Shown: positions 33,001 through 42,000 of the stretch, piece after piece | Position numbering within the stretch: position 1 is the first letter of the stretch | Layout of the letters: each line of letters starts with the position of its first letter | Assembly (NCBI GenBank): GCA_034520965.1 | Contig: JAXHMY010000001.1 | Location: 64,001-128,000, forward strand | Direction: 5' to 3' | Source: Spirochaetia bacterium | GTDB taxonomy: Bacteria; Spirochaetota; Spirochaetia; DSM-16054; Sediminispirochaetaceae | Length of the DNA: 64,000 nt | Position numbers: made by a program

Positions 33001-36000
33001 CCCTACAGTCAGCCGGGGAATTACCCTCACATCCCCTATAAAAGGGGTGTCCGGGAAAAAGTCGCCCAGAACGAAACGATAGCCCCCGAACAGCGCAGGC
33101 CCCCATGCATTGAGCTTCAAATCAGGCGATGAAGTACTAAGACCCTCGTAGCGTAACAGCAGGCCCAGCATGACATTACTAAGAGGCGAGCCAAGGTCGA
33201 ATAGCTCCTCGAAACTGCTCATAACACCGAGCGATGCGCCGTAGCCGACGGCACCGCTGTACAGCGACAGGCCCGGTTCAATCAAAAACTCGAGCTGCGG
33301 CAGTCGTCTCTGCGCTTTGGCGGGTTGCTCCTCCTCGGGCTCTTTTTCCTCAGGCTTAGGTTTCTTCTTCTCACCCTCATCGGTCTCAGTAGCCTGTGCG
33401 GTTTTCTCTGTATCCTCTTGCGCCATAGCAACAGAAAGTTGCTCCAGGAGACTCACCACCTTTGGCATAGGCTCGAGGTTCGCCTCCGCAACTGCATCGG
33501 GGCCGATCATTCTCGTGCGGATATCTGCAACATTATCCCCCTGAACGACAATTTCCACTGCGCCAATGTGGCCGCTTCCTCCTGTTCCGGTAAACACGGT
33601 GCCGCCGAGGCGGGATGGCTTCTCATGGAACTGTGCGGCAGAACCCTCTATTACCACATCGATCTGCCCGGAAAGCGTGGTGGCGATTCTCTCCAGTTCT
33701 TTATCGCTGAAATAACCGCTCTCATACAGATCAACGAGGGGTATGTCGGTCACTGCAATTATTAGCTCTGCACCGCTTTGCTCGAGCTTTTTTACCTCAC
33801 GCGCAGCCGTGTGCAGTACATTTTGTAGCTCCAGCCCTGCTTCATTCTTGGAGTTTTGTGAACTCCCGCTGAGTGTCTCTACGACCTCCGGGCTCACCAC
33901 TGCACACACGCCCACTTCGACACCGTTTATTTCAAAGACGGTAGAACTTTGGAATGGTTTTCTGTCGTTATCCATGATATTCGCGCAGATGAATGGGAAA
34001 TTAGTCTTCTCATTGAGCTCGACAAGCGGTTCGATACCATCGGCAAAGTCGTGCACTCCGGGCACGAAAGCATCATACCCTATCTCTTCGAGCAACTGCA
34101 CATAGAGCCCAGCATAATCGCTTCCCAGATCCACTCCTGGCGGGAGCGGCTCGAAGCTACCGGTACCCAGCACCAGCGGAGTACCTTCCCGGTCCACGTA
34201 GTCCACCACCGCAGAGATATCGGCAATACCGAAACCACCTTCGATTTCATCAAGAATCTGCCGTTGCAGGTCGGAGGTGTGTATAACAGCAATAGACTTA
34301 TCGTTCGGCTGCTCTTCTGTTGCTTTAGTTTGCGCATACAGAACGGGCGCGAAGAATACGCTCAAGAATACAACTATGACCAATGATTTTTTTAACATAC
34401 ATCCTCGGGGTTTGCGATAAAATTTAGAAATCAAACTAATATCCATTAACTTTATTAACTTTAACAAATACATTTTCCCAAAAGCAATAGGAAGAATTCA
34501 CTTTTTTTTTGGGAATGTTTCCGGCAAAAAACGCAAAACCATCAAAGCATTTTTAACTGAAAGCCTCGTCGTCGCTCTTTTTCCTCCAACACCATCTATA
34601 CAGGAGAAACGCGATCAGGACGGCGATACCCTTGTCTATCAGGTTGACGGGAATGCGCGCCCAGAAGGCGGCGGAGAAGAGGCCGCGGCCGATGGAGATG
34701 AAACCGGTCATCATGTAGTCCACCGGATGGTCGGTTATTCCCGAGAAGAAGAACACCGCCACCGCCGAACCGACTAGGGCGTTGACCAGTGAGACAACCA
34801 CCGTCACCAGAAGCACATAAAGGACCCTAAGAAATCTCCCCGTGCGGATGAAAAGCCAGAGCGTAATGGCCGAGGCAAAATTGCAGAACACCCAGAACAT
34901 GTAATCGTCGGCCATAAAAGGAAAAAGATCGGGGGTGAGGTGGGTAACCAAAGCAGTAATGAGGCCCGGGATCAAACCGAACAGGGAAACGGAGACCAGA
35001 GTCCCGATGGTGTCGAGGAAGAGAGGTAGGTGGAAGACGTGGGCGTTCGCGTATCCGAGAAAAGCGTTGAAAACCCCGAGCAGGACGGCAGCGAGTACAA
35101 TTACCACGTAGTAGAGAGGAGATTCGATCCTCCTGCGGCAAAAACCGAACAAGTACCTCATTCACTCCTCTTATAACAGCATTTCTTATCTTTTGCGCTT
35201 ATATAATGCCCATTTCTTCTGCAAAAGCCTTGAGCTCAAACACACTCTCAAGCTCTAAGCTTTGCAAAATCGCCTTTCGATAGTTGAGCACTGTTTTCCT
35301 GCTTATGTAGAGCTCCCGCGATATTTGCGGAACATCTTTCCCCACCGCAAATAAAAGAAAAACTTCTTTCTCCCTTTCCGACAGGCAGTTGTAAGCGTCG
35401 TTTTGCACGAGCCCCCGGGCGTTCGGTACCGAACGCACCCACTCAACCAGGGCATCCGTTGCCAATGGCCCAAAATAGTGATGCCCACGGCAGACAGTCC
35501 GCGCGGCCTGCCGAATTATCTCAGCCGAGGAGTCTTTTGCCACGTAGCCCATAGCCCCCAGGCTCACCGCCTTTACAATATAATTCGGCTTCAGAAACAT
35601 GCTCACAAAGAGCACCGCCGGCCGCTCTCTATTCAATTCATTTTCCTCCCGCGTGGTAGGCACACAAGCAAATACATCGAAACCGCTGCTTTCTGGGAGA
35701 TTTACGTCCATCAGGATCAACTGGGGCAGCTGTTTTTCCACAAGTTTACGGAGCTCGGCTACCGTTTCAGCTTCACCTGCGCAATAAAACTCTTCCGCCG
35801 CTTCCAAAACGGTGCGAAGCCCTGTACGCATCGAGGGGTGATCATCGACAACAATAAAAGGAATCTTCTTTTCGTCACTCACTTTTTCTCTCCAGTACAA
35901 CAGTAATTCGGGTGCCTTTACCAGATCCGCTTTCTATGTGAAGGCTCGCCCCAATACTCCGCGCTCTCTCTTCCATCCCCAACAAGCCGAGGTGTCTCCC

Positions 36001-39000: not shown

Positions 39001-42000
39001 ATCGCCCTATCGCGCTCTCGTGCAAGCAAGGCATCGAGATAAGTTCGAGCCAGCTGACCCAACGGCGCTTCGGGAGAAATGTAGGAACGGTTCACATTTG
39101 CAAGGCTTTCGAAGGATTCAACACTTTTTTTTAAAAGTGTGTCAGCTCTTTCGAATTGATTTTTTCCGAAGGTTAATGTGAGTTCGGCGATTGCTTCGCG
39201 CATCGCAATTAGACTGTTGAGAAAGGATTCATTCGAAACCCCAATGGATGCAAACAGATCTTTCACCCACTTTATGTAGGAAAAAAAAAGCTCCTGAGAT
39301 TCCGCTCCCACCGCATCGGCCAGGTACAAGAGATGGTACTCCACATCCTGCCGGCACTTCTGTTTACCCGCTTCCCCCAAGATCTCAGTATAATGGGGAA
39401 ACCGTGTCCAGAGAATGTTGATAACTTTTTCGGCTATATCAGATTGATGTTCGAGTAAAACATCTCTCGCGAGAGTGGCACTGCTATTTTTCACATTAAT
39501 AATATAAATAGGCGGTTCAATGTGTGTCAAGCAGATCATAAATGCCTCAGCGATTCTCAATTTGGAAGTCTTCTGACTTCCAAATTGAGAATTCGCATCA
39601 AATTCTTTGCAAATTTTTATATATCTTAACTTTTGGAGGCATTCTCAATTTGGATAGTGTAATTACACTATCCAAATTGAGAATTGCTGTAAATGCCTAT
39701 GAAAGCTTACGATGAGTATAGCACAGCATTGAAAACCGCCTATTCCTACTAAAGGCATTTTTTGTTACAATTGTGTTATGAATACAACATTAACAGATAC
39801 AGCATCAAGAGCAGAGCGAAATAAGGCCTGGGCAGTGCACCTATTTACCGCCGCGGGTGCAATTGCAGGATTAAATGCTCTTATTCATATTTTGCAAGGA
39901 GATGTAACGGGAGTACTCATATGGCTTGTGATTGCCCTCATAATTGACGCTGCAGATGGGCCTCTCGCGCGCCGGTACCGGGTTGATAAAGTTCTGCCCA
40001 ATGTGGACGGCGTAGTCCTCGATCATGTGATCGACTACAGCACCTACGCATTGATTCCTGCAATCTTTCTCTACGAATTCAAGCTGGTACCGCCCGGCTG
40101 GGAGCTGGCGGCCGCAGCAGTGGTAGTGGTAAGCTCGTTGTACTGTTTTGCCAACAAAGGGCTAAAAGCCGAGGACAACTTTTTTACCGGCTTTCCCGCC
40201 GCCTGGAATCTGGTTGTATTAGGTTTTTATCTTCTTGAAACATCCCCTGTGCTAAATCTCGTACTTGTACCGATTATTGCAGCCCTAACCTTTACACCCA
40301 TTAAGGTGATACACCCCTTCCGGGTGCGCGCCTATCGCCCGCTTACAATAACTTTAACCTTCCTGTGGACGGCTTTGGCTGTTTACCTGGTAATCGAGAG
40401 AAAATCCAGTGGAAATCTATTTGAGTATGATCCTCTATTCTTGTGGGCTTTTATCCTGATCTCTGCCTATTTTATCATCATAAGCTTGATCCGCACTTTT
40501 CGGGAAGGCTCTGATAAGTACAGTAATTAGGAAAATCGTCTCCACCTACATGTCTGATCCGGTAGACGGCATCGCAGGGCTGGGGATCGCGTTTTCCGAA
40601 AAAATAGCCTTGTGCGCACCTTGCGCCGAGCCGTTAGGCAGTTCTCAGCTCATCTTCACTCTCTATACCTTGCACAAGGACCCTCCCCTCGTGCAAGGAG
40701 CTCGTAGCCGAAAATCTTGACGCCACCATTATTATGGTACATACTTATGGTATGTCGAATATGAACAGACGGGCGACTTTCGCTCTTGATGAGGAGACAG
40801 TCCACAGAATAAAAAAACTTGCAGGCCTTATGCATATTTCCCAAGCTGAGGTGGTCCTGTCGGGCAGTTGCGCTGGCTGAAGAGAAAGTCGACGAGACAG
40901 AGGCGGAGAAAATAAAGCGGATAGAAGCATACCATCAAAAAGGAGGAATAGCAGCGGAAAAGGCGGAAGAGTATCTCGCTGAAGTGAGAGTTAACCGTTC
41001 TTTTTGGGGTAGAAACTGGTGATTCTTCTTGATACAAACTACCTCATCCGCTTCCTTGTCGAAGGAACTTATGAGGCCGAACGGGTAAAAAGCTGGATAC
41101 AACAGAAAAAAGAGCTTTGCACCTCCTCTATCTGTTGGTACGAATTTTCCTGCGGGCCGGTTGACGAGGAAGCTATTAACCTGGCCGCCTCAATCCTGAA
41201 CGAGCAGATTTTCCCTTTCTCCCCCGCCCAGGCTCGGGAAGCTGCCCGTCTCTTCAACCGTTGCGGCCGCACGCGCTCCTTACGGGTGGACGCAATGGTG
41301 GCCGCTGCAGCTATCATCTCCGAATCGGTTCTAGCGACGGAGAACTCGGAAGATTTCGCTCCCTTTGCTTCCTTTGGGCTGAAGCTGATATAAAGAAAGA
41401 GGAATGGGAAAAACCACTATACCTCGTCACCAGCCCGATAACTCTTAGCTGGGGCTGAGCCCCCAGCAGAAAACCTCTACCTGTTCCGTCAACATCTAGT
41501 AGAATGTTCACATCTTCGTTCAACCGGAGTTCTCAAAAGCCAACAAAGTTAAGGTAATAGTTTGATCTTCATAGGTGTAGGCAAGAAGAGTTAACTGCTT
41601 ATTCATATTGAATTTATAAACAAGAACATCTGAAAGATCCCCGGTTTTAGCCTGACCACTATCGGGATCTTTCATAATGGCCTTTACCGCCTTGTCAAGA
41701 TCTGCTTTTTGATTGGCATGCAGTCTTTTATACACCTTTTTAAATGATGGTTTTTGTAAAACGCGCATGGTTTACTCTTGTGAAAAATTGAACGGTTCTG
41801 CCTCTTCCTGCTGTGCAAGAAGAATCTGCTGGATAAAGCTGTAGGGCAGATCCGGGTTTTCTTCTGCAATTTTACCGATACGTGACCAGTATTCAATTTG
41901 TTTGGGAGTTGAGCGGCTATAAACGGCTGCATACCTTTTCGCTTCGTTAATTAAGTCGTCTGAAAGCTTAATTGTCATTGACACGGTCTTACCCTCCTGA

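Follow-up and report, generated by a model that had tools for sequence, protein, structure and literature searches.

The window, a 64,000-nucleotide stretch of contig C1 from a Spirochaetia bacterium, carries on its minus strand a gene for a photocobilin-type sensor. This gene, g00115, encodes 361 amino acids from a GTG codon (38409..39494), with an N-terminal photoglobin, a B12 cap and a B12 Rossmann domain, as seen in Pfam and PDB matches and in a structural model. The open reading frame spans 38409-39560 (C1:102409-103560, minus strand), and the start is probably the GTG at 39494, 6 nt past a conserved -10 box. This box belongs to a sigma70-like promoter, TTGACA-18-TATATT (39501..39530, minus strand), which matches 11 of 12 consensus positions and ends 6 nt before the GTG; the same layout is repeated in loci L005, L006, L008 and L009. 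Judging from the sequence, the transcript is probably leaderless. Just upstream of the promoter lies a 142-bp MITE-like insertion (39548..39689) with terminal inverted repeats and a 9-bp target duplication. The genome holds 35 near-full copies of this element, 26 of them with an 8-9 bp duplication, and the site is empty in L005 and in three of the four sequencing runs compared. The palindromes upstream of g00115 were considered as an operator and ruled out, because they are the ends of this dispersed element; the insertion lies outside the sensor-kinase system.

What kind of sensor does g00115 encode? Its closest PDB sequence matches are the photocobilins 8J2X, 8J2W and 8J2Y (E 2e-17 to 3e-16), and the model (pLDDT 92) superimposes on 8J2X and 8J2W with an rmsd of 1.7-1.8 Å over 205-210 columns. 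The photoglobin domain (39180..39464, minus strand), delimited by Pfam and PDB alignments, has a C-x-x-D motif (KCRQD) and a conserved Trp; the phycobilisome-like match reported in the initial annotation was recovered (Pfam Phycobilisome, E 5.5e-5). In alignments extended without gaps, the Asp of this motif falls on the bilin-binding Asp270 of SasPcob, which is a His in AbPcob. The B12-binding_2 cap (38832..39050, minus strand; PF02607, E 2.4e-14) contains G-x-x-W and W-x9-E-H (W197, E207, H208), and these W, E and H residues do not vary in either set of aligned homologues (32 of 32 and 60 of 60). The B12-binding Rossmann domain (38460..38792, minus strand; PF02310, E 6.9e-24) contains the cobalt-ligand motif E-L-H-E-L-G (H245) and GANTP. 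Membership of the sensor family is established by both sequence and fold.

The conserved partner gene, g00114 (37198..38400, minus strand), begins 8 nt after the sensor and encodes a soluble class I histidine kinase, consisting of a PAS fold, two NNExxNxxR helices, HisKA and HATPase. The PAS-fold domain (38101..38388, minus strand) has no Pfam match; its model (pLDDT 88) has 5y7y_B as the best structural match (Z 12.7, rmsd 1.9 Å, 93 aligned), and Foldseek agrees. A first, weaker copy of the helix motif, VNNEQTNLIR, is supported by conservation and lies in helix 101-130 of the model (38011..38100, minus strand). The signature helix itself, FTRLNNELANLQRDLHKKN (37906..37962, minus strand), is placed directly upstream of HisKA and is a candidate docking site on the basis of conservation and linkage tests. 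Its residues N151, N152 and R159 are invariant in 14 of 14 sequences that had been picked as B12 neighbours and not by pattern.

Two further co-oriented genes follow, with no terminator predicted anywhere between g00112 and g00115: g00113 (35875..37128, minus strand) encodes a NarX/UhpB-type kinase with two hydrophobic segments, and g00112 (35199..35900, minus strand) a NarL/GerE-type response regulator, as judged by Pfam and neighbour comparison. Both had been read as wired partners of the sensor. They are missing beside the sensor-kinase pair in 11 of 11 spirochaete loci, including that of a 97%-identical relative, and were rejected as its output. g00113 is a neighbour in this genome only, and its best homologues are found on other contigs or in genomes that lack the pair. 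g00112 is probably not the cognate regulator of g00114; the kinase classes suggest that it is probably cognate to g00113.

The genome contains three modules with cap and Rossmann domain, at C1:102409-103560, C1:41212-41886 (g00051) and C3:379738-380373 (g02249), while a fourth PF02607 match is a methionine-synthase-type gene on C4. The initial annotation described all three as stand-alone CarH-like modules. The modules are real, but g00051 and g02249 each have a separate photoglobin gene in their operon, at C1:40774-41199 (hhalign probability 92%, E 6e-7) and C3:381487-381957 (84%, E 8e-6), respectively. The bilin-binding Asp is absent from both split globins, being replaced by Gly in the C1 globin and by Asn or Ser, depending on the alignment, in the C3 globin. 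The co-oriented partners of the C3 module are a kinase (380375-381481), the globin and a REC-PAS kinase; the GerE regulator and kinase previously cited for this locus (377781-379494) run on the opposite strand. KaiBC genes are found some 8 kb upstream of g00051.

All three modules keep the W-x9-E-H and x-H-x-x-G motifs that had been read in them, together with the GxxW, EH and GxxxP of the light-responsive B12 signature (SignatureFinder). Ahead of the cobalt-ligand His, the Gly of GxxH is kept by g00051 alone; g00115 has Asp there and g02249 Asn, and 45 of 60 homologues have the Gly. The His after Trp that forms the bis-His light state is absent from the three (Gln, Glu and Glu; His in 5 of 60 homologues). 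No MerR-type DNA-binding domain is fused to any of them (on NF052513, where the cut-off is 400 bits, they reach 50-65), and none of the five MerR_1 matches in the genome falls in a B12 ORF, in agreement with the earlier statement that the assembly lacks a MerR-CarH. Among 16 family relatives there are 31 PF02607 matches, of which 13 are in long ORFs (649-1215 aa, read as MetH) or in photocobilins paired with the kinase; 16 were inspected and comprise 11 corrinoid proteins, four photocobilins and one W-x9-EH fragment, with a MerR domain evident in none. The three thus have CarH-type cobalamin modules but no DNA-binding domain, and they are photocobilins, one fused and two split. Photocobilins are a family already described, as the caveat to the initial annotation held.

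An unannotated helix with the consensus LNNELxNxQRELxKKN is found in the co-oriented kinase at each of the three loci. When a helix HMM is run against the genome, just three matches reach a score of at least 10 (52, 24.5 and 14.4), and these are the three B12 loci. The N-terminal module of the partner has 1838 matches among 50%-identity cluster representatives at E<=0.001, the weaker of which may be generic coiled coils, and 1270 reach 1e-10; carriers include cultured Paenibacillus species, Neobacillus mesonae, Saccharibacillus and Salidesulfovibrio brasiliensis. Does the module belong to a known family? None was found to fit: Pfam has no family for it and gives scattered coiled-coil matches only, the PDB yields one designed coiled coil and one weak match, and the unnamed, STAS, HNOBA and PAS clusters of the ESM Atlas (0.89-0.93) are leads only. 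HNOBA (PF07701), with a feature score of 0.90, has no match to the partner protein of the window at E<=1 and is absent among the best 25 of 122 families for 60 members. The helix was also compared with the S-helix, whose mark is the ERT-type signalling-helix motif: three control kinases with linkers of that type (L174, L202, L208) stay under a score of 8 with the helix model, and in L056 and L079 such a linker comes after the NNExxNxxR helix.

How tightly are helix and sensor linked? Helix loci were collected by DNA-pattern scans for the helix alone, leaving out those with less than 2 kb upstream (14 and 9, of 80 each). With the first pattern, a W-x9-EH B12 gene was found in the flank, on the same strand, at 64 of 66 loci; with a second, mutually exclusive pattern, such a gene lay beside the helix at 69 of 71. 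Among control kinases chosen by their H-box alone, a B12 gene was close by for 16 of the 18 that have the helix and for 2 of the 51 that lack it, and in the family genomes with a full partner module it is directly upstream in 7 of 7. Of the 67 globins at helix loci, 56 have Asp at the bilin-binding position. As to the objection that the kinase link is gene order only, these counts make it much stronger than the gene order of a single genome could. Of 160 loci, 139 have a kinase as the output after the helix, 13 a GGDEF domain and eight something else; therefore, the helix follows the sensor and not the output. In L021, L294, L302, L303, L305 and L335, sensor and helix share one reading frame. 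Thus, linkage of helix to sensor is near-obligate, the helix is portable to other outputs, and natural fusions exist. The linkage is one-way, since a partner is present in only 26 of 49 loci of g00115 homologues, and for most of the others none was found elsewhere in the genome. Of the idea that the modules lie beside kinases and GerE regulators and act on kinases instead of DNA, the co-oriented kinase at every locus and the absence of a DNA-binding domain stand; the route through GerE regulators is not supported, as these occur in the flanks of just 3 of 72 helix loci.

Adjacent genes are co-inherited, and so linkage alone is no proof of contact. Complex prediction gives a score of 0.44 against 0.02 for the best of three controls (76% or more of the contacts recur between runs; partner pLDDT 82 or higher). 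In calibration at <=0.60, 18 of 157 solved complexes attained the mark, as did 2 of 215 mismatches; the score hints weakly at a contact between sensor and partner. Mutual information between the proteins in 157 pairs rose only slightly past the permutations (top z 6.7, against maxima of 5.1-6.5) and outlined no coherent interface. The residues Q215, Y222, P223, F226 and E246 are found in 83-99% of 157 helix-linked modules and in 14-36% of 22 unlinked ones; since about half of the latter are one archaeal family, these residues are candidates for mutagenesis only.

In our judgement there is an even chance that g00115 and g00114 form a two-protein sensor-kinase unit, with split variants of it at the other two loci. 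The data suggest that the specific plug by which such B12 sensors switch kinases is the unnamed helix of the adjoining kinase. By its motifs and fold, the sensor would bind adenosylcobalamin, and g00115 probably binds a bilin as well. By analogy with SasPcob, light would cleave the Co-C bond and the dark dimer would dissociate. The NNExxNxxR helix would be bound by the sensor in one of these two states and, as it runs straight into the dimerisation and His domain of the kinase, binding might switch autophosphorylation on or off. The wider claim, that this helix is a portable receptor site for B12 photoreceptors, through which a free photocobilin controls whichever histidine kinase, diguanylate cyclase or other output lies downstream, we rate slightly short of evens.

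Is light the input? DNA of the organism occurs in sequencing runs from salt pans and microbial mats, which makes light input plausible; no RNA run is among those listed as containing it. The genome has a PduO-type adenosyltransferase; the assembly, 86% complete, gave no match to heme oxygenase, ABM or CobA, which is not proof of absence. Co-occurrence with photolyase was rejected as a sign of light input, because photolyase/cryptochrome genes are not enriched in carriers (23 of 50, against 18 of 46 controls, which may hold the system elsewhere in the genome). Helix carriers include methanogens and sulfate reducers, whose records are presumably from sludge and subsurface habitats. Phytoene synthase is found in 13 of 17 family genomes and the sensor-kinase pair in seven, all of which have phytoene synthase; of the six with phytoene synthase and no detected pair, two are at least 92% complete and have no sensor-type PF02607 match. 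The proposed light control of carotenoid and photolyase genes is not supported: no link to either was found, in the 17 family genomes for phytoene synthase or in carriers and controls for photolyase. Neither is a main light pathway indicated, as a single such module is seen in each of the six relatives with the pair, and the additional two of this genome (C1:41212, C3:379738) are near transposase/integrase-like ORFs, labelled by eye.

The same wiring might instead report adenosylcobalamin supply, cobalt redox state, oxygen or a tetrapyrrole breakdown product, with photolability incidental. We consider this unlikely but worth serious attention: the unenriched photolyases, the many strict anaerobes among carriers, the loss of Asp from both split globins and the missing heme oxygenase all fit it, and an AerR-like protein of R. 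rubrum is reported to work on redox state with no need of its B12 motif (PMC10734443). Against it, the W, E and H of the adenosyl pocket are invariant in 60 of 60 homologues, proteins with this signature were light-responsive when tested (PMC11796333, PMC10979010), and the organism's DNA comes from sunlit habitat types. It is less probable still that the helix is a mere lineage marker of co-inherited kinases or an ordinary coiled-coil linker, the sensor acting on the PAS/HisKA surface or on another protein. Neighbouring genes do travel together, the covariation signal is unusable, and of the partner module L025, L027 and L030 keep just the PAS fold and the first copy of the helix; however, the helix accompanies the sensor even where the output domain differs or the PAS fold is lacking, as in many loci, its invariant residues are polar and by helical periodicity would lie outside the leucine core, and kinases with the same H-box and no helix lack the sensor.

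The full model of the initial annotation, in which the modules act through neighbouring GerE regulators on carotenoid and photolyase genes as the main light pathway of the cell, is very improbable. The missing MerR-CarH, in the genome and among the inspected matches of relatives, phytoene synthase in 7 of 7 family genomes with the pair, and the uninterrupted co-orientation of g00112-g00115 are in its favour, but g00112 and g00113 are not kept beside the pair, the C3 GerE pair is on the opposite strand, and six family genomes have phytoene synthase with no detected pair. That the modules are corrinoid methyl-carrier proteins of the MtaC/MttC type, located beside kinases by chance, is scarcely credible: the weak NCBIfam matches to MtbC/MtgC score at most 60 bits against cut-offs of 215-450, D-x-H-D-I-G, without W-x9-EH, is what the 11 inspected corrinoid proteins of relatives carry where the modules have E-x-H, and the neighbours are signalling genes.

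Returning to the helix as the receptor site of a photocobilin, what does it add? The idea of B12 photoreceptors signalling to kinases had been offered as new; PMC8717448 already proposes photoglobin-B12 proteins as light sensors for two-component systems. The sensor family and its tie to two-component operons are known, and what the present analysis adds is the partner kinase with its helix. A literature search with limited reach into subscription journals turned up neither a test of a B12 sensor against a kinase nor a description of the NNExxNxxR helix. The characterising paper calls the function of stand-alone photocobilins 'less clear' (PMC10979010); with a partner and a short stretch of it named, this question can be put to assays of binding and of kinase activity. 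Should light be the input, a phosphorelay under light control has gone unrecognised in many non-phototrophs; if not, a CarH-type pocket serves as a dark sensor, which would surprise specialists too. A portable helix, if confirmed, would also be a ready-made green/red-light switch for engineering.

The nearest known systems are SasPcob and AbDPcob (8J2W, 8J2X, 8J2Y; PMC10979010), which share the B12 cap and Rossmann domain, W-x9-EH, E/DxH and a phycobiliprotein-like globin; g00115 also keeps the bilin Asp and Trp and, like them, has no His after Trp. AbPcob, like both split globins, lacks the bilin-binding Asp. Stand-alone photocobilins modulate a partner enzyme in vitro and are proposed to work through protein contact (PMC10979010). 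In contrast to the solved photocobilins, where the globin is C-terminal, it is here either N-terminal or encoded by a gene of its own; at the phycocyanin attachment position g00115 has a Cys that SasPcob lacks; and the partner is a kinase with a dedicated helix instead of STAS/SpoIIE or a fused cyclase. The photoglobin-B12 operons of PMC8717448 likewise combine fused or split photoglobin and B12 domains with sensor kinases, response regulators and GGDEF enzymes, and light sensing is proposed for them; the portion of the paper available names no specific partner module, motif or linkage test, although 'SHELIX' among its transmitters may cover the NNExxNxxR helix. CarH, LitR and CtMerR (5C8D, 3WHP, 8JBS) share the adenosylcobalamin pocket, and by fold 8JBS ranks first among the matches (TM 0.81 by target), whereas the modules have neither the MerR DNA-binding domain nor the His after Trp (H132 in TtCarH). 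AerR/PpaA (PMC6199135) is also a stand-alone cobalamin photoreceptor that lacks a DNA-binding domain and binds a partner protein, but that partner is the transcription factor CrtJ/PpsR of phototrophs, and here it is a kinase. The pairing of H-NOX with the kinase HqsK (PMC6759604) offers a further parallel, a stand-alone tetrapyrrole sensor in one operon with a kinase or c-di-GMP enzyme that it regulates in trans. The cofactor here is cobalamin or bilin and not haem, the fold differs, and there is no family membership, the resemblance of the partner module to HNOBA (0.90) being a lead only; if the portable helix is what we propose, it would be a widespread B12 counterpart of H-NOX-kinase signalling in many bacterial phyla and some archaea.

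Genome-wide profile searches returned four matches to PF02607 and five to PF02310, which together comprise the three cobalamin (B12) modules listed in the initial annotation, namely g00115, g00051 (contig C1:41212-41886) and g02249 (C3:379738-380373), a methionine-synthase-type gene on contig C4 and a radical-SAM-like ORF on C7, the last two labelled by eye. The three modules are therefore confirmed, and the motifs quoted for them are found in the sequences. The description of g00051 and g02249 as stand-alone does not hold, since each has a photoglobin gene within its operon. 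The best PDB sequence matches of g00115 are the photocobilins 8J2X, 8J2W and 8J2Y, and its predicted model (pLDDT 92) superposes on photocobilins at 1.7-2.3 Å across the B12 part. Foldseek ranks CtMerR (8JBS) first. From these matches and the separate globin genes it follows that all three modules are photocobilin-type proteins, fused or split, and this sensor family is itself already known. A CarH identity is ruled out by the lack of a MerR domain and of a His after the Trp, and none of the five MerR_1 matches in the genome lies inside a B12 ORF. Their identity as corrinoid methyl carriers was also rejected.

What is new and testable is a specific, portable helix in the partner kinase. This soluble histidine kinase, g00114 (window 37198-38400, minus strand), adjoins g00115 (window 38409-39560 as the longest ORF, minus strand). 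No Pfam family matched its N-terminal 175 residues, which are modelled as a PAS fold at residues 5-100 (5y7y_B: Z 12.7, rmsd 1.9 Å, 93 aligned residues) followed by two helices. One motif (signature NNExxNxxR) is repeated in the helices, as VNNEQTNLIR and as LNNELANLQR, and the second copy continues into the HisKA domain. N151, N152 and R159 are invariant among 14 sequences selected solely as neighbours of B12 genes. Kinase ATPase domains occur in 53 of the 9758 ORFs of the genome, and a helix-model score of at least 10 in only three ORFs: g00114 and two with variant helices, C3:380375-381481 near g02249 and C1:42452-43042 near g00051, the latter the first part of a kinase with an apparent frameshift break.

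How closely is the helix tied to the sensor in other genomes? Searching DNA with a pattern restricted to the helix yielded 113 matches; 80 came with flanks, and 66 of those extended 2 kb or more upstream. Of these 66 loci, 64 contain a same-strand B12 gene with the W-x9-EH motif and 59 a globin. A second, mutually exclusive pattern (at least 120 matches, 80 with flanks) gave a B12 gene in 69 and a globin in 64 of 71 loci. As a control, kinases were selected for the H-box GMAAHDLRNPL; 80 came with flanks, and 69 of those extended 2 kb or more upstream. Of the 18 that carry the helix, 16 had a B12 gene nearby, compared with 2 of the 51 that do not (15 of 16 versus 3 of 53 by regular expression). 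These loci are phylogenetically non-independent, yet they are spread over many bacterial phyla and some methanogens. Among 17 Sediminispirochaetaceae genomes, seven have the partner module (PAS fold plus helix copies), in all seven with a B12 gene directly upstream. The reverse association is weaker, with a partner at 26 of 49 sensor loci; of the 21 genomes behind the sensor loci that lack one, four have a partner match elsewhere.

The helix precedes different outputs (139 kinases, 13 GGDEF proteins and eight others at 160 loci), and many loci retain it without the PAS fold. A single reading frame joins sensor and helix in six loci. In two Chitinophagaceae (L027:7448-7900 and L030:9053-9502), the partner module is a free-standing 150-aa protein behind the sensor, with the PAS fold and first helix copy and no output domain; at loci L082 and L119, a short LxPICxxCxxIR cysteine domain follows the helix in place of the kinase.

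Globin residues were placed through PDB sequence alignments and the numbering of PMC10979010. The Asp of KCRQD in g00115 aligns with the biliverdin-binding Asp270 of SasPcob, a position occupied by His in AbPcob; Trp296 is matched by the Trp of YIKW. The globins of helix loci (n = 67) have the Asp in 56 cases, the Trp in all 67 and the Cys of KCRQD in 15. Both split globins, beside g00051 and g02249, lack the bilin-binding Asp.

Complex prediction, run on a single B12 domain and two kinase-module copies, scored 0.44, against 0.02 for the best control; this was graded as weak support, the job being unlike those of the calibration, and no interface was returned. At least 76% of contacts agreed between runs, and partner pLDDT was at least 82. 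In the calibration, for scores up to 0.60, 18 of 157 solved complexes and 2 of 215 mismatches attained the mark. Inter-protein mutual information gave no usable signal.

The proposal that the modules are wired to GerE-type regulators was not borne out. The second kinase g00113 (window 35875-37128, minus strand, two hydrophobic segments) and the NarL/GerE regulator g00112 (window 35199-35900, minus strand) were not present next to the pair at any of 11 spirochaete loci, L005 (97% identity) among them, and contigs from three of four sequencing runs (two samples) diverge at window 37184, just beyond g00114. For g00113, the best-matching homologues are found either on a different contig or in a genome that lacks the pair. 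Of 72 helix loci, three have a GerE regulator in their flanks and 25 any downstream receiver gene. After g00112 follow a CD3073-like ECF S component scoring below the cut-off (window 34553-35161) and a 558-aa protein without a Pfam match (window 32797-34473), both on the minus strand. The suggested control of carotenoid synthesis fares no better: the presence of the carotenoid genes is confirmed (phytoene synthase at C1:1022212), but nothing connects them to the modules, and 13 of the 17 family genomes have the synthase versus seven with the pair. A photolyase-like ORF lies about 2 kb from the carotenoid genes (C1:1015437-1025611; labels by eye); a FAD_binding_7 search of the genome reported C3:17854 only, without this ORF. 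Relatives with the pair have one module each, and the two extra modules here lie near transposase/integrase-like ORFs.

A sigma70-like promoter of g00115 (window 39494-39530 including the start) ends 6 nt before GTG 39494. Because this layout, with the promoter 6-7 nt ahead of the start codon, is conserved in four relatives (L005, L006, L008, L009), g00115 is probably a 361-aa protein starting at that GTG and translated from a leaderless message; in the present genome and in these relatives alike, the sensor-kinase operon appears to lack a leader. The nearest named relatives are Sediminispirochaeta MAGs (78-97% identity). A non-coding, MITE-like element of 142 bp with terminal inverted repeats is found at window 39548-39689 and 61325-61466; the genome has 35 near-full copies, 26 with an 8-9 bp target duplication, and close strains have an empty site. 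Many genes, including PAS kinases, kaiC, a chemoreceptor and metH, are broken across several frames (C1:41858-47997, C1:50169-51876, C3:374536-376790, C4:6078-8998), which is more suggestive of indel errors in the assembly than of pseudogenes. The kaiB/kaiC genes are situated some 8 kb upstream of g00051. A lipoprotein-like long ORF with repeats of about 96 aa (window 26609-30803, plus strand) is also broken into several frames.

Given the wiring of sensor to kinase, light is a fairly likely input. In its favour, the adenosyl pocket residues are invariant, the genome encodes a PduO-type adenosyltransferase although its PF02310 search showed no mutase-type B12 domain, and the DNA is present in salt-pan and microbial-mat sequencing runs, with run X1 as the possible source sample. 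Against light, photolyase/cryptochrome matches occur in 23 of 50 carrier genomes versus 18 of 46 controls, anaerobes are numerous among carriers, and no heme oxygenase was found in this assembly, which is 86% complete. By eye, small ABM/IsdG-like genes immediately precede the sensor at two loci (L011:2773-3129, L020:7642-7998), and one locus has a radical-SAM gene downstream of it (L013:3889-4713); these are possible routes to bilin.

By analogy with SasPcob, photolysis would alter the oligomeric state of the AdoCbl-loaded sensor; one sensor state may bind the helix at its polar stripe, and binding would shift the coiled coil leading into the kinase or cyclase. The sensor-kinase association is already published: PMC8717448 covers photoglobin-B12 proteins and the split forms and links them to two-component operons; its authors state that no such locus had been studied experimentally. 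PMC10979010 reports photocobilin photochemistry and demonstrates that a cyclase is regulated, in trans as well. PMC11796333, the source of the signature of light-responsive B12 domains, does not use the word 'kinase' in its main text. The literature search found no description of the NNExxNxxR helix, a point on which supplementary material may bear. The signalling logic would match that of H-NOX, which acts on a kinase of its own (PMC6759604), except that cobalamin replaces haem.
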